Positions 11,401-59,780 are shown, numbered from the stretch's first letter. The stretch is 64,000 bases of DNA from Dehalococcoidia bacterium (GCA_965248475.1 OZ252106.1:20746-84745), one strand, 5' to 3'. The notes: a model not told the origin generated them from the letters alone. Made by a program: numbers and translations.

Positions 11401-11437
11401 TTCTTGTGCAGAGCCAGGCCCCCTCATTTTGAAACCC

Positions 11438-13607: not shown

Positions 13608-13924
13608 GGAGTCCTCCTATATCTGTACGGCAGGTTCCCTGGGTGGGATGAATGAAATCTGGAGTTGAATGGTCGATGTTGATTGATTTATCGGGTTTTG
13701 GTGCTGCGGCAGCTTTGCATGGTATCTGCGTGAGGGTGCATGATCCCAGATAGGATGGCCTGATTGTTTCAGAAAAGGTGATTAGGAGCGGTAGGTCGAT
13801 TTTAAGGTAGTCCAGTCCATAGAGGCCATCACAAGGTAGAGTATCAGAGTTAGTCTGAGCCTGGGTAGAGAGGTGTGGCATGGGTGCAACGGCAAGCGCC
13901 AGGCGTTCGTTTGCGGCAGGCGTC

Positions 13925-24409: not shown

Positions 24410-24466
24410 CAGGGCGTGGCTGGATACTAGGCGTGGCCTAGGCGTGGGATGTTTGGATCAGATGTG

Positions 24467-24815
24467 TTCTTCCCACCCACCCGCCCTCGGTACCTTTTGA
24501 AAAAGGGGGGCACCCCCTTAGACCCCCGACATGGAACCCAGGTTCCCTGTACCTTCCTGTAGTTGAAGCATCTTTGTGTGAAGTGGGGACGCACCTCAAG
24601 CTTCCTAGTCCCAACAGGTTGGGACACCCGCGTTCTCTGCTGCTAGTGACCAGTCCAGTACTGGGTCGGTCAGGCCTGTGAGGTTCTCCCACCGCGCCAG
24701 ATGCTTCGGTCGTTTCGATGGGTCGGAACTCCCTCGAGCATGACAGTGGGGATACCGCTCATGTGCTTCCCTTCGGCTTCGCTCAGGATAAACTTCGACT
24801 CAGCATGAGCGGAGG
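24467..24815 (+). repeat. mosaic intergenic repeat, long composite copy
   Basis: ttcttcccacccacccgccctcgg..aaaaaggggggcacccccttagaccccc..ggaacccaggttcc..agtcccaacaggttgggacaccc...ttcgactcagcatgagcgg. It lies between convergent genes. Confidence 0.75.
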
Positions 24816-24864
24816 TTATGAAGCCCGGCAGGAAAGGGAATACCCACTCATGTAACTCCCACGG

Positions 24865-25608
24865 CTATTGTGCGAAGTCGGTGGGAGAGTCCAGGTGGTC
24901 CAGTACCTCCATAAGCGATTCTATCCTGGGGCAGTCGGTGACGTCGGTCATCACGCCGTCGCGGTCCAGCAGCAACGGGCGTATGCCCACGCCCTGTGCA
25001 CCCTGAACGTCCGAGCGGTAGGAATCGCCGACGTGTATCGCCTCGTCGGGGGCCACCCCTGCACGTTCAAGCGCCTTCAGGAATACGGGTGGATGGGGCT
25101 TGCCGATGCCAACCTCTGTGGAGCTCACCGTGAAGTCCAGGTAGGGTGCCAGGCCCAGGCTCTCGCACATTTCGTCGATGTCCCGACCTATGTTGCTGAT
25201 AAGACCCAGCGTCAGCTCCCGCAGCTTGAGCATGTCCATGACGGGAAGCGTATCGTCGAAGGCGGCGAAGGTGTAGGGAATCTGCTGCACCTTGGCCCAC
25301 ACCCGCCCGGCGGTATCCAGGTCCACGTTGATGCCTGCGCCCTCCATGATCAGACGCTGGTACTCGGCGAAGAAATGATCGCGTTCCTGGCCCTGTCGCC
25401 ACGAAAGGGGTGTGTCGCTGGCGTTGATCTGGGACATCCAATCGTCAGCGCCGACGTAACCACGGGCGATGCCTGCCTTTGTGGCGGTGAAGCCGAAGCT
25501 CTCCAGAGCCTGGGTCTGCACCTCCTCTCTGGGAGGATTGAACCCGGCCAGTGTGCCGTAGAAGTCGAAGAAGACGGCCTTGATCATTTCTCTTTGCTCC
25601 AGCGCCAT
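24865..25608 (-). CDS. HAD-superfamily hydrolase
   Basis: VFFDFYGTL (motif I DxD-like), ..LISN.. (motif II), ..HVGDSYRSDVQGA (motif IV). Confidence 0.85.
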   Translation of the reverse strand: MALEQREMIKAVFFDFYGTLAGFNPPREEVQTQALESFGFTATKAGIARGYVGADDWMSQINASDTPLSWRQGQERDHFFAEYQRLIMEGAGINVDLDTAGRVWAKVQQIPYTFAAFDDTLPVMDMLKLRELTLGLISNIGRDIDEMCESLGLAPYLDFTVSSTEVGIGKPHPPVFLKALERAGVAPDEAIHVGDSYRSDVQGAQGVGIRPLLLDRDGVMTDVTDCPRIESLMEVLDHLDSPTDFAQ

Positions 25609-25695
25609 TTTCCCACCCGCTCCACCCTCGTTACCTTTTGGGAGAAGGGGGGCACCCCCTTAGACCCCCCGGTCCCGACCTGTCGGGACACCTTC
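25608..25695 (+). repeat. mosaic intergenic repeat copy (head + GGGGGGCACCCCC module + GGTCCCGAC hairpin)
   Basis: ttttcccacccgctccaccctcgttaccttttgggagaaggggggcacccccttagaccccccggtcccgacctgtcgggacacc. It starts at the HAD start codon. Confidence 0.8.
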
Positions 25696-35585: not shown

Positions 35586-35775
35586 CTTCGTCCCATCCGC
35601 TCCGCCCTCGCTACCTTCTTGGGGGAAGTGGGACACCCCTCCGACTTTGTCCCGACACATCGGGATGAGCGGAGTGCCGACTCGGTCGAGCACTCGAGAT
35701 GGAATCGGAGCATCATCGGACCGAGAACTTCCCGATCCCGACGAGTCGGGACACCCTCTTTGGGCGCCCACCCAC
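35586..35775 (+). repeat. mosaic intergenic repeat copy
   Basis: Degenerate head (cttcgtcccatccgctccgccctcg), then ccgactttgtcccgacacatcgggatgagcggagtgccgactcggtcgagcactcgagatggaatcggagcatcatcggacc and the hairpin gatcccgacgagtcgggacaccc. Nearly identical to the 38767 copy. Confidence 0.85.
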
Positions 35776-38662: not shown

Positions 38663-38766
38663 GAGGGTGTCCTTAGTGTGACATTATATATGGTGATGCC
38701 GTTATGGGCTAACGCAACTTTGCCTAAAAAGCATGGCTCCCCGTTGGAATTTTCCAGCCAGACGCT

Positions 38767-38935
38767 TTCTTCCCACCCACCCACCCTCGAAGGTTATTTC
38801 TGAGGGCACATCCTCCGACTTTGTCCCGACACATCGGGATGAGCGAAGTGCCGACTCGGTCGAGCACTCGCGATGGAATCGGAGCATCATCGGACCTCAG
38901 ACTCCCTGCCAGAGGGGGTATTCCCCCCTGGGCTC
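38767..38935 (+). repeat. mosaic intergenic repeat copy with perfect CCCACCCACCCACCC head
   Basis: ttcttcccacccacccaccctcga..ccgactttgtcccgacacatcgggatgagcgaagtgccgactcggtcgagcactcgcgatggaatcggagcatcatcggacc.. Confidence 0.85.
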
Positions 38936-38953: not shown

Positions 38954-39191
38954 GGGTACTGACGGGTTTCGGATTTGAATGGTACTTTTCCGGGGAAACA
39001 AAGCCGACTTTAGTAACATTTCTTTTGTTAAGGTGCGAGAGGCGTTCTGCCCTGGCCTCTGTCCGAGCGCCTAACAGATGGTACCCTTGCATGGAGGGTA
39101 GCAAAGATGAGGCGGTAGGGGCGAGGAGTGGGTGGCAGTGCTGAGATATTGCGGGATGTGTTCCAGGGTTCGAATCCCTGATGGCCCACCA
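38954..39191 (+). ncRNA. candidate tRNA-like RNA: secure tRNA-type 3' end (39164..39191), possible degenerate or atypical tmRNA
   Basis: 3' end CAGGG-TTCGAAT-CCCTG-ATGGCCC-A-CCA is a canonical T arm, acceptor strand and CCA. No matching 5' acceptor strand lies within tRNA distance. 38954 GGGTACTGACGGGTTTCGGATTTG resembles tmRNA 5' ends, but it pairs at only 5 of 7 acceptor positions and has no G3:U70. Confidence 0.3.
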
Positions 39192-39211
39192 GACTTGACA
39201 AAATCAAGAAC
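39183..39211 (+). repeat. attL: core GGCCCACCA plus element arm CCAGACTTGACAAAATCAAGAAC
   Basis: Read directly from the sequence. The arm is the inverted repeat of 51029..51051 (21/23 match). Confidence 0.7.
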
Positions 39212-39311
39212 TTTCACCCTGCGGTTCAGGTTGGACGTATGAGTTGGCGGCCACTACGGCGACCACCATCACTGTATGCGGGTATACTCCCCAGCGAAAG
39301 AGAGGAGGCCC

Positions 39312-40418
39312 ATGGACTTCATCGACGACGTGCGGACAAGGTCAAGACGGTTTGAAGCTCGGCTTGAACACCTGGATACGGAAGAGGCGACGAAGACATC
39401 CCTCGTTATGCCCTTTATCCAAATGCTCGGCTACAGCATCTTCGATCCAACTGAGGTGGTGCCAGAGTACACGGCGGACTTCGGCAACAAGAAAGGTGAG
39501 AAGGTGGATTACGCCCTGATGCAGAACGGCAAGCCCGTCGTCCTGATTGAGGCCAAGAAGCACGGCTCCAGCCTGCGGGTGGAGCAGGAATCGCAACTCT
39601 TCCGCTACTTTTCCGCCACCGCCGCCCGGTTTGGCATTCTAACGGACGGCATCGTCTATCGATTCTACTCCGACTTGGACGAGCCGCGAGAGATGGACAA
39701 GAGGCCGTTCTTCGAGTTCAACATGTTGGAGTTCACGGACTTACAGGTCGAGCAGCTCAAGCAGTTCCATAAGGACAGCTTTGACCCTGCGGAGACCGTG
39801 GAGGCGGCGCGAGAGCTGAAGTACACCAACGAGATCAAACGTACGCTTTCCGAAGAGATGAGGAATCCGTGTGACGACTTCGTGCGGTTCATATTGAACA
39901 GAATCGAGTATCCCGGATCGAAGACCAAGCAGCGAATAGAGCAGTTCACCCCTCTGGTCCAACAGGCGTTCGCCCAGTTCGTCAAAGACTTAATAGACGC
40001 ACGGCTAAAATCCGCTCTGGACCGTGGCAATGAGCCAACGGAGGAACCTGCCGTTGAGGAGTCTACCACCGGGCGTCCGGCTGAAGTGGAGTATCCCCTC
40101 TATCTGTTTTTGGACTCGAAGGGGGTAAAGGCTAGGGCGCGCCAGGACGATAGGACCAGCTTTGTGGTGCTGGCCGGGTCGCAGGCAGTGAAGGACGAAG
40201 TTTCCAGCATCCCCAAAAGCTTGGCTAACATGAGGAAAGCCTTGATAGATGACGGATTCCTGGTAGACGAAGGTACCACGTATAGGCTGACCCAGGATCA
40301 GTCGTTCAATACTCCATCTGGTGCAGCTTCATTCCTCGTGGTGGCGAGTAGAAACGGGCTAACGGCATGGAAGGACGCCGAGGGACGGACGCTGAGGGAC
40401 ATAACCGATACACACTAA
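39312..40418 (+). CDS. restriction-endonuclease-like protein (HsdR-N-type nuclease fold N terminus, DUF4357-like C terminus)
   Basis: ..TSLVMPFIQMLGY...EY......GEKVDYAL...GKPVVLIEAKK fits the type I R-subunit N-terminal/Mrr-like PD-(D/E)xK pattern. The C-terminal ..FVVLAGSQA....SIP.S....R..L..DG.L.. block resembles DUF4357. GAGGAGG lies before ATG 39312. Confidence 0.65.
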   Translation: MDFIDDVRTRSRRFEARLEHLDTEEATKTSLVMPFIQMLGYSIFDPTEVVPEYTADFGNKKGEKVDYALMQNGKPVVLIEAKKHGSSLRVEQESQLFRYFSATAARFGILTDGIVYRFYSDLDEPREMDKRPFFEFNMLEFTDLQVEQLKQFHKDSFDPAETVEAARELKYTNEIKRTLSEEMRNPCDDFVRFILNRIEYPGSKTKQRIEQFTPLVQQAFAQFVKDLIDARLKSALDRGNEPTEEPAVEESTTGRPAEVEYPLYLFLDSKGVKARARQDDRTSFVVLAGSQAVKDEVSSIPKSLANMRKALIDDGFLVDEGTTYRLTQDQSFNTPSGAASFLVVASRNGLTAWKDAEGRTLRDITDTH

Positions 40419-40434
40419 GAGCGAGGCCTCCACC

Positions 40435-41361
40435 ATGCGCAGCATTGCAGCGGATATGGCGACTCGCAATCTGAAGCTAATCGCGGCGTTCCTAGCAATC
40501 CTATTGGTCGTGGGGTTGGCGGCGTGTGGGGAGACAGAGAATCAACCGGTCTCCCGCTCAACTGCTCCCGCACCGACAGCCACGCCAGTTCTTTACCCCA
40601 CTTCTTCACCAACTCCGGCGGCCACGCTAACGGCCGTGCGGACACTTGAACCCACTGCTACCCAGGAAGCCGCAACCGGCTCGGATCTCTGGAGGGGGCT
40701 CGTGGTCGCCCCAGAGTATCGCTGTTCGCCATACGACTCTGACGACTACCCGTACTCGCAGTCCGTTGAGCAACGTATCGTTGCCAGCATGGGCAACATC
40801 ATCTACGGCCCGTACACGGGTAGGTGGTTCGGTGGCACATCTGATACAGACATCGAGCACATTGTCGCGCGCTCCGAAGCTCACGACAGCGGCCTCTGTG
40901 AAGTTGACGCTGCAACGCAGCGGCAGTTTGCTTCTGACCTTCTGAATCTCACCCTGGCCAGTCCTGCGGTCAATCGCTCGCAGAAGAGTGGCAAGGATGC
41001 GACCGAATGGCTCCCCGACCTGAATCGCTGTTGGTTCGCAAGCCGCGTGGTGGGGGTGCGCCAACAGTACGATCTCACTGTCGATGAGCGGGAGCGCGAC
41101 GTGCTGGAGGGCATATTGTCAGGCTGCGCGTCCACGGAAATGATTGTGCTAGAAAGCCCCCCGGCCTCGACAGCGACTCCTGCCTCTGCGCCAGAAGGCG
41201 AGGAGGTCAGCAGCGCCCTCGAGATGTACGATGAAAATGGGAATGGCCGTATCACTTGCGCAGAGGCGCGTAACCATGGCATTGCCCCTGTTCGCCGTGG
41301 ACATCCCGCATACGAGTTCATGAATGACGCCGACAATGACGGCGTGGTATGCGAGCGGTGA
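40435..41361 (+). CDS. secreted lipoprotein nuclease (DUF1524/GmrSD-C HNH-like) with C-terminal Excalibur Ca-binding domain
   Basis: Lipobox LVVGLAAC; ..TDIEHIVARSEAHDSG.. and ..NLTLASPAVNRSKSG-type His-Me motif; C-terminal DENGNGRITCAEARNHG..DADNDGVVCE. Confidence 0.7.
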   Translation: MRSIAADMATRNLKLIAAFLAILLVVGLAACGETENQPVSRSTAPAPTATPVLYPTSSPTPAATLTAVRTLEPTATQEAATGSDLWRGLVVAPEYRCSPYDSDDYPYSQSVEQRIVASMGNIIYGPYTGRWFGGTSDTDIEHIVARSEAHDSGLCEVDAATQRQFASDLLNLTLASPAVNRSQKSGKDATEWLPDLNRCWFASRVVGVRQQYDLTVDERERDVLEGILSGCASTEMIVLESPPASTATPASAPEGEEVSSALEMYDENGNGRITCAEARNHGIAPVRRGHPAYEFMNDADNDGVVCER

Positions 41362-41522
41362 GGCCGACCCGCTCCCGATAGCAGGAAGGCCAAGTGCATC
41401 AGATACCGGCACTCAAGGGTTGCCCTGGGTAAGAGCTCGTCTGGGTACGCGCTGAATTGACTTCGGGACCCAATGTGACGGATAATACACTCCGTACGAA
41501 TAACACCGGACAGAGGAGCGAT

Positions 41523-41774
41523 ATGACGAATCGGTTAGACGTACGGCTGGACGTCGAACATCGGCGGCGACTGGAGGAGTTGGCCCAGGAGAAGGGAGAG
41601 GCGATCTCCAACGTCGTGCGCCGCCTCATCGACGGGGCCTATGAGGACATCCTGCGCACGCGCCGCAAGGAGGCGGTGGAACGGCTAATCCGGTTGAACG
41701 TGGAAGACCCGCCGGACCCCGACACCCTCTCACGCGAGTTGGAGGCGGCCCATGAGCCCGGCGGTCTTCATTGA
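41523..41774 (+). CDS. ribbon-helix-helix antitoxin (VapB/CopG-like)
   Basis: MTNRLDVRLDVEHRRRLEELAQEKGEAISNVVRRLI is an RHH pattern. GAGGAG lies before ATG 41523. It overlaps the following PIN gene. Confidence 0.75.
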   Translation: MTNRLDVRLDVEHRRRLEELAQEKGEAISNVVRRLIDGAYEDILRTRRKEAVERLIRLNVEDPPDPDTLSRELEAAHEPGGLH

Positions 41775-42210
41775 CGCCAACGTTCCCATCTACGCCGCCG
41801 GCGGGGACCATCCCTACAAGGAGCCGTGCGCCCGGATTCTCCGCGTGGTGGCCGAGGAGCCGCAGCCGTTCGTAACCGACTCTGAGGTCCTCCAGGAGTT
41901 GATGCACCGCTACCTGGCTTCAGGACGCTGGGCGTTGGGTCGGGAGGTTCTCCGGGCCTTCGCCGAGGCCATGAATGGCCGGATCGAACCCGTCCATGCC
42001 GAAGACGTTCTTTCGGCGTCGGAGATGGCGGACAGCCATCCCGGAGTCAGCGCCCGGGACCTGGTCCACGCGGCGGTGATGCAGCGGCTGAGAGTAGGTC
42101 GCATCATCTCGGCGGACACCGACTTCGACCGACTGGAGGGCGTTGACAGGCTCGACCCCGCCTGCGTCGGGGAATGGGAACGTTCCATCCCAGCAGTCGG
42201 GGAAGGGTAG
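41752..42210 (+). CDS. vapC: PIN-domain toxin
   Basis: VFIDANVPIYAAG (first acidic residue), ..SEVLQEL.., ..ARDLVHAAVM.., ..IISADTDFD.. Confidence 0.8.
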   Translation: MSPAVFIDANVPIYAAGGDHPYKEPCARILRVVAEEPQPFVTDSEVLQELMHRYLASGRWALGREVLRAFAEAMNGRIEPVHAEDVLSASEMADSHPGVSARDLVHAAVMQRLRVGRIISADTDFDRLEGVDRLDPACVGEWERSIPAVGEG

Positions 42211-45200
42211 CCCTGGCTATTCGCCATTTGGAAACCTAAGCAACCTGGGGACGACTTTGGCACTCCACATCGACATAGACGACCCCAAGCACCGCAACGC
42301 CGTCGCTGAGATTCTGAGACGGCACGATGACGGCGCGGCCGAGGCCAACATCACCAGCGCGGTCCGCGACTTCCTCATCGTCACCGCGCTCGTGAAGAGC
42401 GAGGAGATGGCCGAGGAGAGCCCGCCCTCGGACGAGTCTAGGAGTGCCGTTGACCTGAAGGCACTGGACACCTTCATCGAGTTCAAGCGGCGCATCGGAA
42501 CAGCATCCGGCGGCGCACCCAACCCGCAGTACGTCGAGCAACTGGACGACTACCTGGCTCAAGCGTTGACGCAAGGCCGGGTTCAGATGGGCGTGCTCAC
42601 CGACGGCAAGCGATGGCTGCTGCGCTGGCACAACGCCGGGCCGGTCAGAATGGCCCCACCCTACGCCTTCACCCTGGAGGAGCCGGACCAATGGATCGGC
42701 CTCTACGAGTGGCTGCGAGACTCGGCCCTGGTATCCCTTGAAGGAGTCAGGCCCGATAGAGAGGGGATCGAAGGGCATTTCGGCCCGGACAGTCCTTCCT
42801 ACCAGCGCGACATCGCCGCTCTCAAGACCCTCTACCAAGAGAACGCCGAACAAGAAACCATCCGTATCAAGCGCCGGTTGTGGTACGACCTGCTGCGCAC
42901 CGCCCTGGGCGAGATCGCCTACACCACGGAGGGGATGAGCGCCGAGGCGCAAGCGCGGCTGGCCAAGGTCGGCGTCGGCCCGGAGGAGATGGACGATCTG
43001 TTCATCCGACACACCTACTTGAGCGCCGTCATCGGCATGGTGGTGCAGGCCTCCTTTGGCATCGACATACGCCGCCTAGCCGAGACAGACCCTGCCGACC
43101 TTATCCAAGGCCGAGAGTTGTACCGCGCCACCGGGTTGCAGGGGGTGCTGGAGTCGGACTTCTTCGCTTGGCCCAACGAGGTCGGCGGCGAGGCGTTGCT
43201 GCAAACACTGGCCCGCCGGGTCGCCCGGTTCGACTGGGCCGAGGCCCCGCCGGACACTGCGGCAACGCTCTACGAGTCGGTCATCCCGCCCGATGAACGG
43301 AGGCAGTTGGGGGAGTACTACACCCCGGCCTGGCTGGCCCGCGCCATGATTCGGGAGTTGGTTGACGACCCGCTGAACCAGCGCGTGCTGGACCCTGCCT
43401 GCGGCTCCGGCACCTTCGTGGCCGAGGCGGTGTCCCACTTCATAGCCGCCGCCAACGCAGCCAACTGGAACCCGGGGGAAGTCCTCAACCGGCTGCGGGA
43501 GGCAGTGACCGGCATCGACGTCCACCCCGTGGCTGTGCACCTCGCCCGTGCCGCGTGGACGTTGGCCGCCCGTCCTGCCATCAACGCCGCCAGCGCCGCC
43601 GGGTTCGATGCGTCCCTGTCCATCCCCGTCTACCTGGGCGACGCCCTCCAACTGCGCTTTCGCACCGGCGATATGTTCGCCGAGCACAACATCACAGTCC
43701 AGGTAGAGGATGAGGAGAACACCGAATTGGTCTTTCCCGTGAGCCTGGTGGAACGAGCGGAAACCTTCGACGCCCTGATGGGGGACGTTTCGGCCTCCAT
43801 TGAGCGGGGAGACGACCCGTTCCTGGCCCTGGACGACAACGAAATCAACGACCCCACTGAGCGCCAAGTCATTAACCACGCCATAGCCGCCATGCAGAGG
43901 CTCCACGACAGGGGGCGCAACCATATCTGGGCCTACTACGCCCGGAATATGGTGCGCCCCGTGGTGTTGTCACGCTCCAAGGTGGACGTGGTGATCGGCA
44001 ATCCGCCTTGGATCAACTACAACCAGACCGCCGACATCCTGCGAGACGAGTTGCAGAACCTGAGCCGGAACGCTTACGGCATCTGGGCAGGGGGGCGATA
44101 CGCTACCCACCAAGACGTGGCTGGGTTGTTCTTCGCCCGCAGCACCGACCTGTACCTGAAAGATGGGGGCGTAATCGGCTTCGTGCTGCCCCACAGCGCA
44201 CTTCAGGCCGGGCAGTACTCCAAGTGGCGCGGCGGTCAGTGGCGGGCGCGCAAGTCAGGTCCGAGCGTCTCGGTGGACTTCACCTTCAAACCGGCCTGGG
44301 ACCTGGAACAACTCAAGCCCAACAGCTTCTTCCCAATACCCGCCTCGGTGGCCTTTGCCCGCAAGCTCTCCCAAGACGTCTTAAGTAAACCGCTGGCCGG
44401 GACGGTGGAGCGGTGGCGGGGAAGGGCTGGGGCCGATGACGTGCGGCGGGAGTTGGCGAGCATCACCGACACCGGAGCAGCGGGGGAATCTCCCTACGGC
44501 GGTTACTCCCGGCAGGGCGCCATCATCGTGCCACGCTGTCTGTTCTTCGCCAAAGAAATGGAGAACACCGCCATCGTGCAAGCAGCGCCGACGGTCACGG
44601 TCAATCCCCGTCGGGGTAGCTTGGATAAAGCGCCGTGGAGGGACCTGGACCTGACCGCCATCACCAGCCAGACCGTGGAGAAAACCCACCTCTTCGCCGT
44701 TTACCTGGGAGAGACCGTTGCCCCCTACGTCACGCTGGAACCCCTGAAGGCCCTGCTGCCGTTGAAGCAGGGCGACGACGCCATTCCCACCGATGCCAAC
44801 GGAACGGGCGGCATCCGGCTGGGCGGCCTGGAACGGCGGATGCGGGAGCGCTGGCAGACGGTCAGCCGTCTGTGGGAGGGCAACAAGGCCCTGGCCAACA
44901 ACTTGAACCTGCTCAGTCAGCTCGATTACATGGGCAAGCTGTCTTCGCAATTGGAGTGGCAGCGGGATGCAGGAGACCGGCCTGTTCGCTTGGCTTATGC
45001 GAGCTCTGGCACTCCGACGGCGGCGTTGGTCGCCGATGATGGGCTATTGGTTGATTACACCCTGTTCTGGATCGCTTGCAAGGACATAAATGAAGCCAAC
45101 TATCTGTTGGCTGTCATAAACAGCGTTACCTTGTATGAGTCTGTACAGTCATTTATGCCGAAAGGCCAGTTTGGTGCTCGCCATCTACAAAAGCACCTGT

Positions 45201-45436
45201 GGAAGCTGCCAATCCCAGAGTTCGACCCGGCGGAAGAATTGCACGTCACCCTTGCCGAGGCCGGGGCAACGGCGGCAGTAGGCGCTAAAGCGAAACTGGA
45301 CCACCTCCGAGTGCAACGCGGCGATGACCTGACTGTGGCCATCGTCCGACGCGAGTTACGGGCATGGCTGCGCACATCGGACGAGGGAAGGGCCGTGGAG
45401 TCCGCTGTGCGCAGACTGCTAGCGGACGGTTCGTAG
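42143..45436 (+). CDS. fused PD-(D/E)xK nuclease / gamma-class N6-adenine DNA methyltransferase / target-recognition protein (type IIG/IIL-like RM enzyme)
   Basis: N terminus ..AVDLKALDTFIEFKRR (D..ExK). LGEYYTPAWLARAMI + VLDPACGSGTF (AdoMet motif) and VVIGNPPWINY (NPPW catalytic motif). Long C-terminal region. The first ~70 nt overlap vapC, so the true start is probably downstream. Confidence 0.8.
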   Translation: MTGSTPPASGNGNVPSQQSGKGSPGYSPFGNLSNLGTTLALHIDIDDPKHRNAVAEILRRHDDGAAEANITSAVRDFLIVTALVKSEEMAEESPPSDESRSAVDLKALDTFIEFKRRIGTASGGAPNPQYVEQLDDYLAQALTQGRVQMGVLTDGKRWLLRWHNAGPVRMAPPYAFTLEEPDQWIGLYEWLRDSALVSLEGVRPDREGIEGHFGPDSPSYQRDIAALKTLYQENAEQETIRIKRRLWYDLLRTALGEIAYTTEGMSAEAQARLAKVGVGPEEMDDLFIRHTYLSAVIGMVVQASFGIDIRRLAETDPADLIQGRELYRATGLQGVLESDFFAWPNEVGGEALLQTLARRVARFDWAEAPPDTAATLYESVIPPDERRQLGEYYTPAWLARAMIRELVDDPLNQRVLDPACGSGTFVAEAVSHFIAAANAANWNPGEVLNRLREAVTGIDVHPVAVHLARAAWTLAARPAINAASAAGFDASLSIPVYLGDALQLRFRTGDMFAEHNITVQVEDEENTELVFPVSLVERAETFDALMGDVSASIERGDDPFLALDDNEINDPTERQVINHAIAAMQRLHDRGRNHIWAYYARNMVRPVVLSRSKVDVVIGNPPWINYNQTADILRDELQNLSRNAYGIWAGGRYATHQDVAGLFFARSTDLYLKDGGVIGFVLPHSALQAGQYSKWRGGQWRARKSGPSVSVDFTFKPAWDLEQLKPNSFFPIPASVAFARKLSQDVLSKPLAGTVERWRGRAGADDVRRELASITDTGAAGESPYGGYSRQGAIIVPRCLFFAKEMENTAIVQAAPTVTVNPRRGSLDKAPWRDLDLTAITSQTVEKTHLFAVYLGETVAPYVTLEPLKALLPLKQGDDAIPTDANGTGGIRLGGLERRMRERWQTVSRLWEGNKALANNLNLLSQLDYMGKLSSQLEWQRDAGDRPVRLAYASSGTPTAALVADDGLLVDYTLFWIACKDINEANYLLAVINSVTLYESVQSFMPKGQFGARHLQKHLWKLPIPEFDPAEELHVTLAEAGATAAVGAKAKLDHLRVQRGDDLTVAIVRRELRAWLRTSDEGRAVESAVRRLLADGS

Positions 45437-45519
45437 CAGCGAAATCACTTTCGCCCCCTCTTCAGGGAAGATTACATCAGCATAGGTGCATCCTACCCAC
45501 GGGTGCTGTCATGTGATGG

Positions 45520-47268
45520 TTGCCCAACACGCCGGTCAGTCGCTACGCTTGCCGTATGGGTTTCTCAGATCGACAGTTGCTCGATGCCCTCAGTCGAATG
45601 CCGTTTATCGAATCAACGGAGTTGGCGCTCATCCTGGGCGAGCCGCACGCGACCGTCCACCGCAGACTGTCCGAGTTGCTGGCCGACGGCATTGTCGGGA
45701 GAGTGAGTCACGGCACCGTGCATCTGCCGTCGAGCGGGAGATACTGCCTGACGGCGAAGGGCATCAGGCAGGCCGCCGGGATTCTCGGCTTTGGCACGCC
45801 CTCGGACTTCGTACGGGCCTATCCCGTGTCCAGGGAGTGGCTGACGCTGCTCATTCGCCGGATGGACGCGGTGGCCGCCATCTACCGATTGGCCTCGTCA
45901 CTCTCCCCCGGCAGTGACGGACTGCGTACTCACGTGGAGTTCCATCGCAGGGGTCGCTTCGACGCCAACATCACCCTCCACGATGGCCGCAGCTTCGGCG
46001 TGGTGCGCCAGGGTCTGGCCCTGCGGCGGCGGTCGCTCTACGACCGGCTGAGGGCCATAGCGGAGTACGACTACCGGCGCCGCCCCGACATCGTTCTGAT
46101 CATCGTGCCCAGCGTCTGGGAGCAGAGGTTGACGACGCGGTTCTGCGAGCAACGGGATCTCCGCGACTGCTTCGTCGCCGTGGAGTCCAGGGAGGCGCTG
46201 GAGAGACGAGGCGGCCGCGTCTGGCAGAGTGTCTCGGTCCTGATTGGAGGGCGGCACCGCACGCTGGAGGGCGTCATCTCCCAGGCCAGCCCTGGCGGAA
46301 GGAGTCGAGCGGCGTCGCCGAGTCGGAAGCGGGCGTCGCTGCCCCGTCCCGAGCGGATGGTGCAGGCTGCGCCAACCTTCGGCATCAGCCCTTCAGAGAA
46401 GCGGGTGCTCGACCTTATCACAGACCACCCGATGATCCCACGGGAACACCTGGCTCGCTGGCTTGGGGTCTCCGAGGGGCGGGTCAGCCAGACGATGCAC
46501 AGCCTCGTCGATACATGGGGCCTAGTGGAGCGACGAGGACGACGCGGAGACACACGCTACACCCTGTCTGCTGAGGGAATACGCTACATCACCCACCGAG
46601 ACCGTGCTCAGCTCCCGACCACGCGGGCCATCTGGAGCACGGCTCTCACAACAGATCGTCAGGGCAGAAGACGGCACGTGGGCCACCGGATCGACACGTG
46701 GGCGCGGCAGACGAGGCACGCCGACGGCATCACATGGTTCCTCTCAAAGCTGGAAGCCGAGGCGAGGACCGACCCTGACAGCGAGCTCCTGTGGTCCGTC
46801 CCCACCGCCAGGTCCGACCGGGCCTACAACTGGGGCGATTCGGCCATCGCACCCGACGCCGTGGGGCACTTGGTCGCAGGGGGCCTTCACGTGCCGTTCT
46901 CCCTGGAGTACGAGCTTCGTGCCCGTCACCCCGAGGGAGTTATTGCCTGCCTGAGTCCCTACATGAGCTACTACTGGTCCACCGAGCCGGGCGAAGACCA
47001 GCCACCGTTCCCCACCACCCTCTTCGTCGTGGACACTGAGGAGGTCGAGGCCACCTACGTGCGCACGGCGTCCCAGTTGGCCACCATGTCGCTGCCCATC
47101 CTCGTGTCCTGCCGGCCCGTTCTGTCCACCACAGGGATACTGGGAAGGTCATGGCGTCCACTCTGGGAGCCGGAGTCCCCACGACTGGCACTGTCCGGGC
47201 TCCGACTCTACCAGTGGGACTCACTCTACCACCGGATGCGTCATCGTCCTGTAGGGGGGAATAGATAG
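45520..47268 (+). CDS. double winged-helix protein, replication-relaxation-family-like (tandem duplicated module)
   Basis: Two wHTH segments (LDALSRMPFIESTELALILGEPHATVHRRLSELLADGIV; RVLDLITDHPMIPREHLARWLGVSEGRVSQTMHSLVD), each followed by a nuclease-fold-like block. The second keeps ..IAPDAVGHL....VPFSLEYE.. Confidence 0.55.
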   Translation: MPNTPVSRYACRMGFSDRQLLDALSRMPFIESTELALILGEPHATVHRRLSELLADGIVGRVSHGTVHLPSSGRYCLTAKGIRQAAGILGFGTPSDFVRAYPVSREWLTLLIRRMDAVAAIYRLASSLSPGSDGLRTHVEFHRRGRFDANITLHDGRSFGVVRQGLALRRRSLYDRLRAIAEYDYRRRPDIVLIIVPSVWEQRLTTRFCEQRDLRDCFVAVESREALERRGGRVWQSVSVLIGGRHRTLEGVISQASPGGRSRAASPSRKRASLPRPERMVQAAPTFGISPSEKRVLDLITDHPMIPREHLARWLGVSEGRVSQTMHSLVDTWGLVERRGRRGDTRYTLSAEGIRYITHRDRAQLPTTRAIWSTALTTDRQGRRRHVGHRIDTWARQTRHADGITWFLSKLEAEARTDPDSELLWSVPTARSDRAYNWGDSAIAPDAVGHLVAGGLHVPFSLEYELRARHPEGVIACLSPYMSYYWSTEPGEDQPPFPTTLFVVDTEEVEATYVRTASQLATMSLPILVSCRPVLSTTGILGRSWRPLWEPESPRLALSGLRLYQWDSLYHRMRHRPVGGNR

Positions 47269-47822
47269 GGCCGATGCGTCCCTATCCCCCGACATGCTGT
47301 CTGGGGGCTGCAAAGTTGCCTCGACGGGGGGCTTTTCGAGGTTCGCCGGTGCCGCAAACCGCCCTATCTGCCCCTGTTTTAGCTACGAAACGGGCCGGAA
47401 GACCCGTTGACCGGTCAGCGCTGGAAAATGCAAATGATTGGGAAGCTGTGCTAAACTACGATGCCTCTCCTACGACGACTTGTTTGCACTCTTGCAGCCG
47501 TTGACGTGTCAGCATGTAGCGAGGAAACAGCTATGGATGAACCTGTCCGGCTGGTCGGCACAGCTGATCCGGGCGGGATTTGGCGTGTCGGCGGCGTCCG
47601 CGGCCCAGTGTGGCCCATCGGTTTTGCGGCGAAACGATGTCGGGGTGCGTGACATGATTTTGGGGCATGGGTAGGAACGGACATCCCGGGCCAGCCAGCT
47701 AACGCTTTCTGCCACATTCGGAGTGTACTGACCGAAATCTGTTAGCAGTACCTGTAAAGGGCTGGTTCCACCGAAAAATGGATGGAATTGCTAAAGCGGG
47801 CCACCCCCTGTAGAAAACGGAA

Positions 47823-48305
47823 ATGACTCCTGGGAAGCCAAAGAGCAACGGCGGGCCAGCATTGCGGGCCGACGACAGTCAGCCCGACCTCAAGTGGGTT
47901 GTGGAGTGGCTCGTTGAGCGGGAGGGACAGCGCCGGACGGCGGCCCTCCTGGGAGTGAACCGCAAGACAGTGGTGCTGGCCCTGCGCCGGGAGCGACTGA
48001 CGGGCAGGATGACCCTGGCCGTGCAGCGACTCATGGCCAACCTGGACGACCCCGGATGGGAGAGAACGACGCCACTGGACCGGTTGGAGGCGAGGATGAG
48101 GCTGGCGATTGAAGCCGTGGACGATCTGGCTAGGCTCGTGGAGCGTCTGACCCGGCGCGTGGAGGCCCTGGAGGCGGCTCGGCAACCCGAAGACGACGTT
48201 GGAGACCAGGCGGCGAATGCGCCCGAGTCCGAGGGCCGGGTTCTGCGTCTGTTCAACTGGAGGCGGAGGCGCTATCCACGTAGCGAGGAAAAGAGAGATG
48301 GATGA
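47823..48305 (+). CDS. hypothetical HTH/coiled-coil protein
   Basis: ORF with an HTH-like segment (RTAALLGVNRKTVVLALRR) and a coiled-coil tail. It overlaps the next start by ATGGATGA. Confidence 0.5.
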   Translation: MTPGKPKSNGGPALRADDSQPDLKWVVEWLVEREGQRRTAALLGVNRKTVVLALRRERLTGRMTLAVQRLMANLDDPGWERTTPLDRLEARMRLAIEAVDDLARLVERLTRRVEALEAARQPEDDVGDQAANAPESEGRVLRLFNWRRRRYPRSEEKRDG

Positions 48306-48787
48306 GCACGTCCGTTGGGTGACGAAAGCGGAGGCGGCGCGAGAGATGGAAATATCCCTGTCCACCCTCGACCGGAGGGATCAGGAGTGGAGAGGTCTAT
48401 GTGCGTATGCACGGGCTAGAGTACGTGGGCGACGACGAACTGCTGCGTCGATCCCTTGGTCGGGAGGACAAGCTTCAGCGGACGGCACGGGAGTTGGATA
48501 GGACAGTCACAGAGTCGGAGCGGGAGCGAGACGTGGCCAGGGAAGCGGCGTTAGCCAGCAGACAGGCGCAGAAGGAGATGGAGGAGGCGTACCGAAAGGA
48601 GCGGGCAGCCCACGGCGAGGACGAGACGAAGGGCTATCAGGCTCGGCCTCGCCGTGGGCTGCCCGCTCCTCGTCATCTGCGGTCTGCTCACCTGGCGGCT
48701 GCTTGCGTGAGAATTGACCGACGAGTCTTGACTCGTTCACGTGTGAAGGATAGAATGACTCGTAGAGCCTCTATTCATGACTCATAA
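48301..48787 (+). pseudogene. excisionase/MerR-type HTH (Xis-like) gene with apparent +1 frameshift near 48377
   Basis: MDEHVRWVTKAEAAREMEISLSTLDRR then changes frame. The sequence reads ..IRSGEVYVRMHGLEYVGDDELLRR.. in the frame of ORF 48401..48787, which is the usual continuation of such HTH proteins. Confidence 0.5.
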
Positions 48788-48797
48788 GGAGCGTGAT

Positions 48798-49061
48798 ATG
48801 AACCAACTGACGGTCAGAGGATTCGACGACGAACTGAGCGCCGTAATGCACGGCCTCGCCAAGCGGGAAGGAATCTCCCTGAACCAGGCCGCCCTAAGGC
48901 TCCTAAGGAAGGGTGCCGGAATAACGGATAGCAAGAGAAACCCGAACGCCATAGGGTCTTCGTTGGACGACCTGTTCGGCGTATGGAGCCGGGATGAGGC
49001 GGAGAGCTTCGATAGCGCTCTTGAGGTATTCGAGACCGTGGACGAGGCAGCGTGGGCATGA
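48798..49061 (+). CDS. RHH/Arc-type antitoxin
   Basis: MNQLTVRGFDDELSAVMHGLAKREGISLNQAALRLL is a FitA/VapB-like pattern. AAGGAG lies before ATG 48798. It overlaps the PIN gene. Confidence 0.75.
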   Translation: MNQLTVRGFDDELSAVMHGLAKREGISLNQAALRLLRKGAGITDSKRNPNAIGSSLDDLFGVWSRDEAESFDSALEVFETVDEAAWA

Positions 49062-49456
49062 GGATTCTGCTGGACTCCAATGCCTATTCCGCATTCATGC
49101 GGGGCAACGAGGAAGTGAGAGACCTGATACAGGCCGCTGAGGAGGTGTTGTTCTCCGCTATTTTGGTGGGCGAACAGCTATTCGGCTTCCGGCAAGGAGC
49201 GTACTACGAGCGGAACCTTACGGAACTTCGATCCTTTCTCGAACGTCCCTACGTGTCCTTCGTTCCTGTAGGCCCGGTGACTGCTGACCGCTACTCTAGG
49301 GTAATGACTGCGCTAAAGGCGAAGGGGCGGCCAATTCCGACAAACGACGTCTGGATTGCGGCCCACGCAATGGAGACAGGGGCTGACCTTGTGTCGGCCG
49401 ACGGACACTTCGAGCACGTTGATGGGATTGTGTGGATACCAGTCACGACCAACTGA
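49052..49456 (+). CDS. vapC: PIN-domain toxin
   Basis: ILLDSNAYSAF.., ..VGEQLFG.., ..IPTNDVWIAAHA.., ..LVSADGHFEHV.. Confidence 0.8.
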   Translation: MGMRILLDSNAYSAFMRGNEEVRDLIQAAEEVLFSAILVGEQLFGFRQGAYYERNLTELRSFLERPYVSFVPVGPVTADRYSRVMTALKAKGRPIPTNDVWIAAHAMETGADLVSADGHFEHVDGIVWIPVTTN

Positions 49457-50046
49457 AACTAAGGAGGACAGCATGAAGAAGCACCTACAGCCACTCACGC
49501 CAGCAGCACTCTACGCCAGAGTGTCCAGCGACAGACAGGACGTGGACCTGTCCGTGTCCGCCCAGCTACGGGGGCTCAAGGACTACGCCAGGGCCAACGG
49601 CTACTCCGTCGCCCGCCAGTACATAGACGAGGCCGAGAGCGGCCGCGTCGCAGACAGACCCCAGTTCAGGGAGATGATCGAGGAGGGCAGTAAGGCGAAG
49701 GCCCCCTTCGACGTGATTCTCGTCTGGAAATTCTCCCGCTTCACCAGGAAGCGGGAGCACGCCGTCGCCTTCAAGTCCATGCTGCGGAGGAAGGGTATCA
49801 GAGTAGTCTCTATCACCGAGCAGGCCGAGGACAACGCCACGGGCAGGCTGCTTGAGGGAATCATCGAGAGCGTCGATGAGTTCTACAGCGAAAATTTAGC
49901 GCAGGAGGTCGTCCGTGGTATGCGGGAAGCCGCATCACGAGGCTTCTTCCTCGGCTCCAAGGCCCCCTTCGGCTACAGGCGGGTCAAGGTCAATGACGGA
50001 GCCAAGGAGCGTCCCACTCTGGACGTGGACCCTACCGCCGCTCCTA

Positions 50047-50080
50047 TAGTGAAGGGAATCTTCTAGTGAAGGGAATCTTC
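50047..50080 (+). repeat. perfect tandem duplication 2 x 17 bp (TAGTGAAGGGAATCTTC)
   Basis: Read directly: cctaTAGTGAAGGGAATCTTCTAGTGAAGGGAATCTTCgagagc. Confidence 0.95.
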
Positions 50081-51028
50081 GAGAGCTCCCTGCGTAGCAA
50101 CCGCCTCAAGGAGATATGCAGGGAGCTGAACGACCGGGGCATCACCAATAGGGGAAGACGCTGGTACAAGGGTGGACTCCACTACCTGCTGACCAACGAA
50201 GCCTACACCGGCGCAGCCGTCTGGGGCCGCACGTCGAAGGGAGAGAAGGCCCAGGACCCGGTAAGTGTGGAGGGAGCGTGGCCCGCCCTGGTATCCAGAG
50301 AGCTGTTCGTCGCCGTTCAGCAGGCGATGAGTGAGCGTGCCCCGAAGGTGCAGAGACCCGCGAGGGTTGGGAGCAGGTTCCTGCTGAGCGGTTTGCTGAA
50401 GTGTGGAGTGTGCGGCAGGCCCTACTCCGGCCAGGGGGCCAAGAGCGGCCAGTTCGCTTATTACATCTGCGGCACCCTGTTCACGGAGGGCGCAGGGACG
50501 TGCAGCGCCCGCTACCTGAACGCTCCCAGGGTGGAGGAGTTCGTGGTGGAGAAGATCAGGGAGCGGATTCTGACCGAGGAGACCATCGTTGAGTTGGTGA
50601 CGTTGGTGGCCGAGGAGATAGACGCCATGGCCGGGGAGCTATCCGGCAGGCTAGAGGTCGTAGAGGCTGAGCTATCCGATGTGAGGAAGCGTCTTGAGCG
50701 GCTCTACGAGGCCATTGAGACCAGCGAGCTGACGTTGGAGGTCCTGTCGCCCCGCATCCTGTCTCTGAGGCACCGCGAGGAGCAGCTGGAGGCTGCGCGA
50801 GACGATGCCGAGCGCCAGCTTGAGCAGAGGAGAGTGGAGCTGCCTAACACCGAGGAGATCAAGGGGTACGTGGCGGACTTCCGGGAGTTCTTGCAAGAAG
50901 GGACGTTCCCTGAGCGCAAGGCGCTCATCCGCAACTTCGTGGAGGGCATCGAGGTGGTTGGAGACGAGGCCACACTGACGTACACCATCCCCATGCCGAA
51001 CGATGGTGTGACCTCGGAATCGGCCTCG

Positions 51029-51058
51029 GTTCTTGATTTCGTCAAGTCCGGCCCACCA
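51029..51058 (+). repeat. attR: element arm GTTCTTGATTTCGTCAAGTCCGG plus core GGCCCACCA
   Basis: Read directly. It lies in the last codons of the recombinase gene, and the stop codon TGA follows the core. Confidence 0.7.
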
Positions 51059-51400
51059 TGACGTACCGAACTGCGAACTCGCCCGTTTAGGGCGACCTCT
51101 GCAGTGTCCGCTCCACCTATGGGAGAGTCCTCCGGCGTAGGTATGGAGTAGACGATAGCAGCCTTGCCGGGCTTGACTTCGATCTCCTTGACGAAGGAGC
51201 GGACGAACGCCCTGGCCTGAGTCAGCTCGCTGGTCTCGACTCCCATCCTTTAGGTAGACGAAGCGAGAAAGCAGGTTGGTCCGCCAAGCCCGGCGCTTCG
51301 ACCAATGCCCAGTCGGGCGATGGCTGTGCGGCAAGTGCCTGTTCGATAGCCTGGGGCAACTGAATCCGACTGTCAGCATCCAACTGCTGCACGGCGGCTG
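51059..51400 (-). pseudogene. 3' remnant of a third large serine recombinase (5'-truncated, frameshifted)
   Basis: Minus strand reads ..ETSELTQARAFVRSFVKEIEVKPGKAAIVYSIPTPEDSPIGGADTAEVALNGRVRSSVRHGG. This is colinear with the C terminus of the 1..1163 protein (SELTERRAFIESFVKEVVVMPGNAVVRYTIPMPDDSPIPG..ALNGSVLSTVKFGG). An upstream piece (..QQLDADSRIQLPQ..) is in another frame. Confidence 0.6.
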
Positions 51401-52620: not shown

Positions 52621-53265
52621 CTATCCGAGTACGTTCCCCGCACGCAGCATCGTGCCCTCGCAGTCACCGAACTGGTTGAACACGAACAAAGGGTGATAGC
52701 ACGTGCTCCCAAAGTGACCGTTGTACGACGATCCCTCCCGTTCTCCATGTACCGGACTCTCCGAACTGTCCATGTCCAAGATCACCCGCCGGTGCGGCGT
52801 GCGGGACATAGCTCCGTCCACCCACTTAGCGTTCAGTTGGCCCAACCCTTCCACGTTGCTGTCTTGCGTAAGTACCTCGGTCTCAAACCGGCTCATGGCG
52901 CTCGCGCTCGCCGCCGGTCTGTCTATGCCTCGGTCTCCAACGACTACCCGCATCGTCGGATCGTCGGCCAGCCGTTCAGCGTCGTTGGTATCCTCGTAGC
53001 CCGCCAGACGACTGTACACCGACTGCCTGAGAAGGCCCACCAATCGGTGCTGCACGTTACGACCGCCCCGAGTCTCCTGCAAACACTCACTGGCCGTCTC
53101 CGTCAGTCCCAGCGCATCATCCAACTCGCGACAGGCCAACAGTCCGGCATCTGAGGTAATGGTGGCACCGTGGAACTCCAACCGTATACGTCGGTCGAAA
53201 CGGGGCTTGGCGCAGACGTTCGTGCTTTCACCCATTGGGTGCCTCCAGAGTAGGTACGTTATCAA
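52621..53265 (-). pseudogene. IS1380-family transposase, N-terminal fragment only
   Basis: ..ITSDAGLLACRELDDALGL..LLRQSVYSRLAGYEDTNDAERL..DP....V......AS.SAMSRFE.. is the conserved IS1380 N-terminal region. The ORF ends after ~214 aa with no DDE C-terminal half and no terminal repeats seen. Confidence 0.7.
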
Positions 53266-58682: not shown

Positions 58683-59375
58683 CTAGAGCAGACCGAAATG
58701 CTGGGCCGAGGTCACTGCGGCTAGTGTGGATTTCACATGCAGCTTCTTGCGAGCGTTGCGGACATGGTTGAGGACGGTGTGAGGACTCAGGCCGAACTCG
58801 TCGGCGATCTCTTTGGTCTCCAGCCCCAAAGCCACCAAGCGCAAAACTTCCAACTCGCGGCCAGTAAGGGGACCAGCTGCGCGGCGGGTCGAGTCGGTGG
58901 TCAAGTCCGTTGGCACGGCTGGGGACTTCCCTTCAGAGAACACACTCTGGACGGTTGCAGCGACTCTTGTGGCCCGTGCTTCATCTAGGTTCGCATTGAA
59001 CAAGTGTACTAGCAGCGTCTGATCCGAGTGGGCCATCGGGATGATCAGAGGGGTTATCATGATCTCTTTTCGTGTGCCTAGCGCGCACCGCGCTCGGACA
59101 CAGGTTACCGGCGGGACACGTCGTTCTCTGGCGAGCCGGATAGAAGGGCAGCCTTCCATGCAGACCGGCGTCGAACCTTCCGGGGGAAGGTTCCGCAATA
59201 CCTCGTAGCATCGCCGCCCGATCACCTGGGACGCTTTGTGCCCGAGAATCTGCTCGGCGCTGCGGTTCCAGAAGACGATGGTCTGGCTAATATCCACGGC
59301 GTAGACACCGTATGGCGCTGCGCTCAGCAGGTCTAGAATGCCTTCTGTCGTCTCAGGGACCTCGGGTCCATCCAT
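58683..59375 (-). CDS. PAS-domain LuxR-family transcriptional regulator
   Basis: PAS-like N terminus (YGVYAVD.SQTIVFWNRSAEQILG) and C-terminal LuxR HTH (LTGRELEVLRLVALGLETKEIADEFGLSPHTVLNHVRNARKKL). Confidence 0.85.
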   Translation of the reverse strand: MDGPEVPETTEGILDLLSAAPYGVYAVDISQTIVFWNRSAEQILGHKASQVIGRRCYEVLRNLPPEGSTPVCMEGCPSIRLARERRVPPVTCVRARCALGTRKEIMITPLIIPMAHSDQTLLVHLFNANLDEARATRVAATVQSVFSEGKSPAVPTDLTTDSTRRAAGPLTGRELEVLRLVALGLETKEIADEFGLSPHTVLNHVRNARKKLHVKSTLAAVTSAQHFGLL

Positions 59376-59780
59376 GTTGCGTGGCTTTGCTGTTGATGCA
59401 ATGTTCCCGCTTTCTAGATAGGTCCATTCTAACCCATCGCGACCATAGAGTGTCTGGAATCAGGGACAACGACCAGTAGGGTAGGCCGCTGGCAAGTAAT
59501 CCCGGCTGCCCGAAGCACTTTTCCGTCGGCCCCCCTCCGAACCGGACGTGGCACTTTCGCGTCATCCGGCTCTCCAGTCACTTTCACAAGGTCCGGCCTC
59601 ACCGCATATAGGTAACCATCGGGCAATTTATCCCCGTCGCCTACTTGGGGTCATCGCAGAGATCGTATCGAGGAGGCGCGCCAGGCACCTAGCTGGAAGT
59701 CCCGGTGCTGCCGCCTTCCACCCCGTCCAATCCCACTGCCCACGAGTACCGCAGTTTTTTGTGTCGATTGCCTCTCATCC

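Follow-up and report, generated by a model that had tools for sequence, protein, structure and literature searches.

A serine-recombinase island next to a tRNA acceptor end in Dehalococcoidia DNA, with a disrupted recombinase gene

Results

The ends of the island

The DNA analyzed here, referred to as the window, is a stretch of 64,000 nucleotides from a Dehalococcoidia bacterium (GCA_965248475.1, OZ252106.1:20746-84745). Positions 39188-51054 of the window (about 11,867 bp, which is also the size expected of a circle) are occupied by an integrated island that carries defence genes, toxin-antitoxin modules and, at its right end, the frameshifted gene of a large serine recombinase (LSR). The best explanation of the locus, to which we assign a probability of about 0.88, is a mobile island whose own LSR recombines an attP site of about 50 bp with a tRNA 3' acceptor end. 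The comparative set consisted of the DNA around nine recombinase homologues; loci on other contigs, the related Chloroflexota islands among them, are labelled L0xx. The features at the ends of the island are as follows.

39110-39191, plus strand: tRNA relic, canonical only from about 39162 to 39191 (T-arm, 3' acceptor strand and ACCA) and source of the B half-site GGTTCGAATCCCTGATGGC (39167-39185)
39186-39187, plus strand: inferred crossover dinucleotide CC in attL (tRNA positions 71-72), from the junction alignment
39188-39211, plus strand: P' arm of attP, ACCA-GACTTGACAAAATCAAGAAC, the left end of the island; the same arm stands after ..CCACCA in L076, L077, L078, L079 and L080
39212-39243, plus strand: conserved left-end sequence TTTCACCCTGCGGTTCAGGTTGGACGTATGAG, shared unchanged by L079 and L080 and in related form by L076, L077 and L078
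49473-51061, plus strand: LSR gene, frameshifted, with the Resolvase domain in 49473-50066 and the Recombinase and Zn-ribbon domains in 50066-51061
50047-50063 and 50064-50080, plus strand: perfect 17-bp tandem duplication TAGTGAAGGGAATCTTC, which breaks the frame; the fetched homologues are uninterrupted here
51029-51052, plus strand: P arm of attP, GTTCTTGATTTCGTCAAGTCCGGC, within the last codons of the recombinase, from arm searches and the junction alignment
51053-51054, plus strand: inferred crossover dinucleotide CC in attR, as 13 junctions agree as far as GGC-CC and differ beyond it
51055-51231, minus strand: right flank, outside the island, a stump of ~59 3'-terminal codons from another serine-recombinase gene, found by tblastn with the window's other recombinase

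The 9-mer GGCCCACCA is present at 39183-39191 and at 51050-51058, and an inverted repeat of 23 nt lies directly inside the two copies. Its halves, CCAGACTTGACAAAATCAAGAAC (39189-39211) and GTTCTTGATTTCGTCAAGTCCGG (51029-51051), are complementary at 21/23 positions (91%). These coordinates and sequences had been given in a preliminary description of the same DNA and were correct on re-checking. With 4 copies in the 64-kb window, against 1.26 expected, the 9-mer is weak evidence alone. The 20-nt arm, searched with up to 3 mismatches, occurs at only these two places in 64 kb, where 0.01 occurrences are expected. Joined to each other, the two ends reconstitute a nearly palindromic attP of about 50 bp that consists of the P arm, the central CC and the P' arm ACCAGACTTGACAAAATCAAGAAC; counted from the dyad, it is a 50-bp site with 23-nt arms around CCCA (23 + CCCA + 23). 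The predicted circle junction (51054 joined to 39188) reads GTCAAGTCCGGC-CC-ACCAGACTTGAC, and the predicted empty site (39187 joined to 51055) reads GATGGC-CC-ACCATGACGTACC. An attP formed by joining the right end to the left end had been predicted before, and contig L076 carries both arms in just this arrangement, as contiguous P arm, core and P' arm, at 11543-11592 (GTTCTTGATTTCGTCAAGTCCGGCCCACCAAACTGTACAAAATCAAGAAC).

In order to map the crossover, 13 recombinase-side (attR-type) and 7 far-side (attL-type) junctions were aligned. The recombinase-side junctions were constant through ..GTCCGGC-CC (n = 13), and the far-side junctions were variable up to ..GC and then constant from CC-ACCA-RACTKKAYRAAATCAAGAAC (n = 7). 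Since one side is constant up to CC and the other from CC onwards, the exchange falls within CC, at the centre of the dyad, where the preliminary description had placed it. The site has the properties of an LSR attachment site, namely dyad symmetry over about 50 bp, a non-palindromic central dinucleotide and an exchange localized to this dinucleotide. The 9-bp repeat reflects mimicry of the tRNA end (..CC-ACCA) by attP and is not demanded by the chemistry. We propose that the recombinase would make a staggered cut at the central CC, corresponding to tRNA nucleotides 71-72. As attP carries ..CC-ACCA, the tRNA end on the left (attL) would survive insertion unharmed. At attR, the P arm, which lies within the last codons of the recombinase, would be joined to whatever was downstream, and integration would swap out the last 16 codons of the enzyme.

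Related islands share the ends

Homology to the island starts at 39183 in L077 and at 39184 in L079, in flanks that differ from those of the window, and at 39167 in L078, because there the adjoining tRNA T-arm is shared too. On the other side, homology stops at 51057 in L078 and at 51058 in L076, and in L077 it continues to 51071, a short way into an antisense tRNA. L077 and L078, both from sample ERZ26167216, are intact members of the family. Over 39184-47636, L079 matches the window at 93.4% identity behind a different left flank. The left end of L080 is again the same, with a third flank before it, so that the window, L079 and L080 share left end and cargo in three distinct left flanks. The recombinase-side flanks are unlike one another at 13 loci. 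A looser scan of JGI metagenomes with the P arm returned 10 loci, all of them integrated copies in which the P arm is followed by six different flanks.

Different boundaries of the same DNA in close relatives had been named as an observation that would refute the island; four related islands break at the same ends. Together with the site in L076 and the junction alignments, these boundaries bear out the initial claim that the ends of the island build an attP for its own serine recombinase. The boundaries, the arms and the position of the crossover, like the cargo and the membership in a family that is plentiful in Chloroflexota metagenome assemblies, are established by sequence and comparison.

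The intergenic spaces of the window contain mosaic repeats at 11314-14228, 24459-25680, 35638-35740 and 38759-38914. Their absence from the island, already noted, holds, with no convincing copy in 39192-51058 and the last cluster ending at 38914. This cluster stops about 200 bp short of the tRNA relic, and pieces of it recur in a relative, L093. One 85-nt unit is 98% identical between 35638 and 38812.

The serine recombinase and its C-terminus

The recombinase is encoded in two reading frames, 49356/49473-50066 and 50066-51061. Removal of one copy of the 17-bp repeat restores an uninterrupted protein of 523 aa that ends in ..VLDFVKSGPP*, confirming that the duplication splits the gene. The catalytic domain matches PF00239 (2.6e-33) and contains the serine motif YARVSSDRQ at residues 14-22, and the C-terminal part matches PF07508 (Recombinase, 2e-19) and PF13408 (Zn_ribbon_recom, 2.8e-15). 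Matches in the PDB were the catalytic domains of TP901-1 integrase and TnpX, at low identity and mostly confined to this domain. The closest plasmid-borne recombinase in a plasmid database was at most 32% identical. With its LSR broken by the duplication, the island in the window is probably not self-mobile.

Joining 51058 to 39192 lengthens the recombinase open reading frame (ORF) by 16 codons (DLTKSRTFTLRFRLDV*), a read-through that had been noted before and that we reproduced from the sequence. On translation, the conserved stretch 39212-39243 would in the circle encode the final codons of the enzyme. The recombinase of L076 (P0111) has a counterpart tail, which reads NCTKSRTFTIRSRLIP where DLTKSRTFTLRFRLDV is predicted for the circle of the window.

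A search with the repaired protein gave 3750 homologues with E<=1e-60; identity to it is 81-92% among the 120 that are listed. The sequence ..VLDFV[K/Q]S[G/S] was located near the C-terminus in 113 of these 120, and another count puts the number at 106. In nearly all of the 113, PP comes next and is followed by complete divergence in sequence and length, at the point where the P arm meets the core. By a rough count, about 75 of the 113 tails run into antisense LSR 3' ends and about 20 into antisense tRNA T-arms, and one is attP-like.

The tRNA partner

The left partner was not reported as tRNA or transfer-messenger RNA (tmRNA) by ARAGORN at default settings or by Rfam (gathering score, E<=10), and it is not a functional gene of either kind. 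At 80% stringency, ARAGORN predicted only an 82-nt cloverleaf (39110-39191) whose acceptor stem contains mismatches and whose anticodon loop is odd. The "tRNA-like gene" ending at 39191 in the preliminary description is therefore not a functional gene, only a relic, and what remains of that proposal is the tRNA 3' end as target. The last 25 nt of the relic are identical to the 3' end of tRNA-Lys(CTT)/tRNA-Met(CAT) genes in dozens of genomes, many of them from Firmicutes, and its acceptor end, ATGGCCC-ACCA, is tRNA-Lys/Met-like. A scan of the genome collection with this tRNA 3' end found 75 loci, mostly ordinary Firmicutes tRNA-Lys/Met genes; three Chloroflexi loci among the 75 were in non-tRNA contexts and lacked the island arms. 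Identical copies of the 25 nt lie, in non-tRNA contexts, in Chloroflexi metagenome-assembled genomes at L001 480-504 (-), L014 198-222 (+) and L009 3233-3257. L001 and L014 are both on JACPQL010000051.1, as two inverted copies with nearly identical 55 nt upstream. When a displaced 5' half of the tRNA (GGGCCATTAGCTCAG..) was sought in the window, only the tRNA-Ile gene matched. The motif GGTTCGAR-TCC-N6-GCCCACCA likewise occurs within the window only at the relic and at tRNA-Ile.

Wherever the partner is recognizable, it is a tRNA acceptor end. The tRNA end is ..GC-CC-ACCA, with the element lying behind it in the same orientation as the tRNA, at three places: the attL of the window, the tRNA-Val-like partner of L078, and tRNA-Ile beside the window's other recombinase. 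The P arm of L077 abuts an intact, antisense tRNA-Arg(TCT) with GG as nucleotides 71-72, and antisense tRNA-like flanks are also found at L078, L080, L081, L082 and L087. GGTTCGA, or a variant with one mismatch, starts 19 nt from the crossover at all recognizable tRNA partners. In the P arms GGTTC lies at -25..-21, compared with -19..-15 in the tRNA half-sites, and thus about 6 bp further out. In the attP of LI integrase, the zinc-ribbon motif is shifted about 5 bp outward relative to attB. The GGTTC offset appears to resemble this difference between attP and attB half-sites of serine integrases. The enzyme would accordingly read the T-arm/acceptor end of the tRNA, with CC versus GG setting the orientation.

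The partner is intact only in the tRNA-Arg of L077 and the tRNA-Ile of the window. Degenerate partners, which keep the T-arm and the acceptor 3' strand and have a decayed 5' part missed by ARAGORN, are those at L076 15637-15711, at L078 11560-11650 and 12761-12834, at the right junctions of L080, L081 and L082, and at 39110-39191 of the window.

Backbone and cargo genes

Between its ends, the island contains the following genes in addition to the recombinase.

39276-40418, plus strand: HSDR_N + DUF4357 protein (cargo), similar to the candidate defence family PDC-S14 (profile match)
40435-41361, plus strand: GmrSD_C-like nuclease domain + Excalibur Ca-binding domain (cargo); 99%-identical copy in L079
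41457-41774: small ORF upstream of the first PIN toxin, possible antitoxin
41752-42210, plus strand: PIN-domain toxin of the first toxin-antitoxin-like module; the same gene pair is called in L079
42143-45436, plus strand: type IIG restriction-modification enzyme (cargo; Eco57I/N6_Mtase; REase_MTase_IIG, 3e-69)
45520-47268, plus strand: winged-helix + Replic_Relax protein (backbone; PF13814, replication-relaxation), conserved in L077, L078 and L079
47274-48787, plus strand: small ORFs without family matches (backbone); DNA 85-87% conserved with L077 and L078 up to 48601
48777-49456, plus strand: VapBC-like module, RHH antitoxin (48777-49061) and PIN toxin (49052-49456), by profile matches

As judged from profile matches and conservation, the Replic_Relax protein, the small ORFs, the PIN toxin-antitoxin module and the LSR form a conserved backbone, and the left part is exchangeable defence cargo, made up of the type IIG restriction-modification enzyme, the GmrSD_C-like protein, the PDC-S14-like protein and another PIN module, the one with the toxin at 41752-42210. 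The type IIG enzyme measures about 1,060-1,097 aa (1059 aa in the L079 orthologue), and its true start is probably downstream of 42143. The toxin-antitoxin module beside the recombinase (48601-49458) is RHH + PIN in the window and DUF7662 + PIN in L077, L078 and L081. The two versions have no DNA homology, yet the sequence on both sides of the module is conserved, indicating that the module is exchangeable. The island contains no coupling-protein or type IV secretion system genes, and no oriT was identified in it. Profile searches found neither a tyrosine integrase nor a transposase inside, and the Replic_Relax protein had zero matches in the plasmid database.

The right flank and recombinase arrays

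The right flank opens with the tRNA's own ACCA (51055-51058). The recombinase stump in this flank is 59% identical to the window's second recombinase (tblastn, E 1.4e-19) and ends at the core. It reads towards the core and so faces the island recombinase tail to tail. In L084, L089 and L090, the P arm is followed by flanks homologous to this one, and many of the homologue tails consist of such sequence. These observations change the attB proposed in the preliminary description. The left half, the tRNA 3' end, stands; the right half is not native chromosome but the LSR stump, and the reported "attB with weaker symmetry" is a composite of the tRNA end and an old element arm.

The stump of another serine-recombinase gene in the right flank indicates that the island was added to an existing array as a secondary insertion. 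The tRNA relic would first have been taken by an older element with an LSR of a related type. The present island would then have inserted between the tRNA end and the older element, most of which would later have been lost. On this order of events, the island would be the tRNA-proximal and youngest member of an accretion array.

The window's second LSR gene, 3-1109 (+), is cut by the window start and encodes a protein 47% identical to the island LSR. It reads antisense into an intact tRNA-Ile(GAT) gene at 1106-1182 (-), and its junction, ..GCCCACCA joined to AACTTGACGGTAGACAGAAC, repeats the motif found where the island begins on the left. The second LSR and the shared motif at tRNA-Ile indicate a second, related island to the left of the window.

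Arrays are present in L076 and L078, and tail-to-tail recombinase pairs in L081. The two full-length recombinase genes in L081, 1128-2753 (+) and 3450-5051 (-), lie tail to tail about 700 bp apart. P0001, a called protein of 835 aa, is the end of one family recombinase fused to a second copy. The L081 pair and the P0001 fusion are signs of dense arrays. In L080, an inverted partial copy of the left cargo (HSDR_N/DUF4357 and truncated GmrSD_C) with a P' arm lies at 11568-13470, directly downstream of a family recombinase, which suggests recombinase-mediated inversion between arms.

Two further observations concern the DNA to the right of the island. A truncated DDE_Tnp_1_4 transposase (52621-53265 (-), profile positions 3-192 of 435) lies in a decayed region, with unannotatable ORFs beyond it. 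Rfam identified a group II intron catalytic domain at 59476-59574 (-) with 62.8 bits; the ORF tested beside it, 58683-59375, encodes a PAS/LuxR regulator, not a reverse transcriptase.

Discussion

Several observations weigh against an island moved by its own LSR. No empty site was recovered, although the preliminary description had proposed such a site in related genomes as a check. The closest relative of the left flank, L093 (85% identical DNA), was reached by way of an orthologue of a neighbouring gene, a 93%-identical Na/Ca exchanger. Its synteny with the window breaks off at 38709, short of the tRNA relic, which leaves no comparable site. An exact-protein look-up with the neighbouring CBS protein gave no empty site either, this protein having no record in the gene-position index and forming a singleton cluster. 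No free circle or circle junction was found, and the contiguous attP was absent from the JGI metagenome and IMG/VR scans. These negatives for empty site and circle signify absence in the searched collections and not disproof. The contiguous attP of L076 sits within a 185-kb contig, which makes it an internal array junction. The frameshift makes activity of this copy of the recombinase unlikely. Family searches recognized no recombination directionality factor among the backbone ORFs, although one could be encoded among the small ORFs at 47274-48787. The base composition of the island is not distinguishable from that of the window and is thus uninformative as a marker. Finally, the tRNA partners are degenerate here and at most other examined junctions.

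The frameshift itself could be interpreted differently. If the 17-bp duplication were an assembly artefact, or if the recombinase fragments complemented each other, the island would be intact and autonomously mobile. Its near-perfect arms (21/23), its otherwise intact ORFs and the 93% identity to L079 suggest recent activity, and the source, whose proteins NCBI and ENA record on one Chloroflexota contig of 2.40 Mb, is apparently a metagenome assembly. However, a perfect 17-bp tandem duplication is, in our judgement, not a typical consensus error, and it is missing from every fetched homologue. For the fragments to complement each other, an LSR would have to function with the catalytic domain and helix E on one piece and the recombinase domain on the other, and a split of this kind is not known to leave activity. 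We consider an intact island unlikely. Another alternative takes the left arm for the leftover 3' end of an inverted recombinase gene, with the repeat a by-product of convergent gene ends and the true limits elsewhere. The minus strand of 39182-39211 indeed translates into a 10-aa match (90%) to the recombinase C-terminus, and 3' stumps of recombinase genes are common beside these elements. Yet recombinase homology stops at the arm and is followed by minus-strand stop codons, whereas the sequence just inside the arm, TTTCACCCTG..GGTTCAGGTTGG.., is kept as left end in L076-L080 and is not recombinase-like. As homology between islands also starts exactly at the arm, we rejected this very improbable interpretation.

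The geometry of the ends, with a direct repeat outside and an inverted repeat inside at both, is formally that of a DDE-type transposon with terminal inverted repeats of 20-23 bp and a 9-bp target site duplication, GGCCCACCA. For such an origin, the "duplication" would have to differ between insertion sites, but it is the same CC-ACCA in every family copy, and it is absent in L077 and L081, where the right junction reads CC-GCC.., unlike the left one. In L076, moreover, the arms are contiguous with the core between them. With no transposase in the island and the LSR as its only recombinase, a DDE transposon is scarcely credible, and it was rejected. We see next to no chance that a tyrosine integrase brought the island to the tRNA gene and that the serine recombinase is mere cargo or a resolvase. 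It is true that tRNA 3' ends are classic targets of tyrosine integrases, which prefer RNA genes (PMC13626063; also Williams 2002, in the passage of PMC12884075 that cites it). But no tyrosine recombinase gene lies in or beside the island, and the tRNA 3' part is not directly repeated at length, the shared sequence being just 9 bp. Furthermore, the att arms lie within the 3' end of the LSR gene and co-vary with the LSR type, the 47%-identical LSR at tRNA-Ile going with a different arm.

With recombination by the island's own LSR as the preferred explanation, the junctions permit a more general proposal, which is tentative and to which we give somewhat less than even odds. The enzymes may have no single attB and instead read a generic tRNA motif, in which GGTTCGA of the T-arm stands a constant 19 nt from the end of the acceptor stem and GC/GT comes next, with the cut at nucleotides 71-72. 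These nucleotides may also decide the orientation: with CC, attP would restore ACCA; with GG, G-CCG would be left. As the tRNA half-site survives in attL, new elements of this and of related recombinase families may keep inserting beside the tRNA, which would explain why most copies stand in arrays of recombinases arranged tail to tail. Exchange of the 16 terminal codons may make the enzyme of the circle differ from that of the integrated island and serve as a built-in cue for directionality.

The copy in the window is itself a dead and ordinary member of its family. At the level of the family, the possible generic recognition of tRNA acceptor ends and the building of arrays are the most interesting aspects. 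The ends provide a base-precise description of attP and attB for an abundant, uncharacterized family of Chloroflexota serine integrases. They suggest that such LSRs can use tRNA acceptor ends, a niche usually held by tyrosine integrases. The islands would be compact vehicles that shuttle restriction-modification and other defence genes among mostly uncultured bacteria. The natural junctions at many tRNA-like sites are a ready-made data set on specificity, and if the enzyme truly reads a generic tRNA feature, it could be of interest to genome engineers.

The closest described system are the ssrA islands of Dehalococcoides with the serine recombinase DsiB (McMurdie et al. 2011, PMC3146451), but the island is not a member of that family as defined. 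Both occur in the same phylum and combine a serine recombinase (~540 aa for DsiB) with small, mobilizable islands that accumulate in tandem (accretion) at the 3' end of a tRNA-shaped gene. In both, the att site extends into the 3' end of the recombinase gene, giving copies with different C-termini, and the authors of the ssrA study suggested that full recombinase function may exist only on the circle (PMC3146451). The targets differ, however. DsiB islands use a single tmRNA gene with a 20-bp direct repeat, whereas acceptor ends of tRNAs or tRNA relics that share CC-ACCA are used here; Rfam and ARAGORN found no tmRNA, and the repeat is only 9 bp. The gene module differs as well, with the small serine recombinase DsiA, ParB, Mom and a RecF-like protein in DsiB islands, and one LSR, a PIN toxin-antitoxin pair and Replic_Relax here; the island has a single Resolvase-domain gene and no ParB or Mom matches. 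The dsiB gene adjoins attL at the ssrA side, whereas the LSR of the island is at the end far from the tRNA.

The island LSR shares the Resolvase + Recombinase + zinc-ribbon architecture, presumably with the coiled coil, of phage LSRs (phiC31, Bxb1, TP901-1, A118/LI), as well as an imperfectly palindromic attP of about 50 bp, a non-palindromic central dinucleotide and a shorter attB half-site. Unlike these phages, the element has no virion genes, its target is a tRNA end and not a protein-coding gene, and attP lies within the integrase ORF. SCCmec/Ccr and other integrative mobilizable elements with serine recombinases have been reviewed (PMC5704250). Like the island, SCCmec elements are small and non-conjugative, use an LSR to enter a conserved gene at its 3' end, carry exchangeable cargo and form tandem arrays, but they use a CcrA/CcrB pair (or CcrC) and the rlmH 3' end, and their host range and backbone genes are different. 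Islands of the Islander/TIGER type, which depend on tyrosine integrases, also insert at tRNA 3' ends and restore the gene end, but their chemistry is different, the 3' portion of the tRNA is directly repeated over a long stretch and there is no palindromic 50-bp site; a tyrosine integrase is lacking here. Within the known class of serine-recombinase integrative islands, the island in the window is a further, well-delimited but inactivated case.

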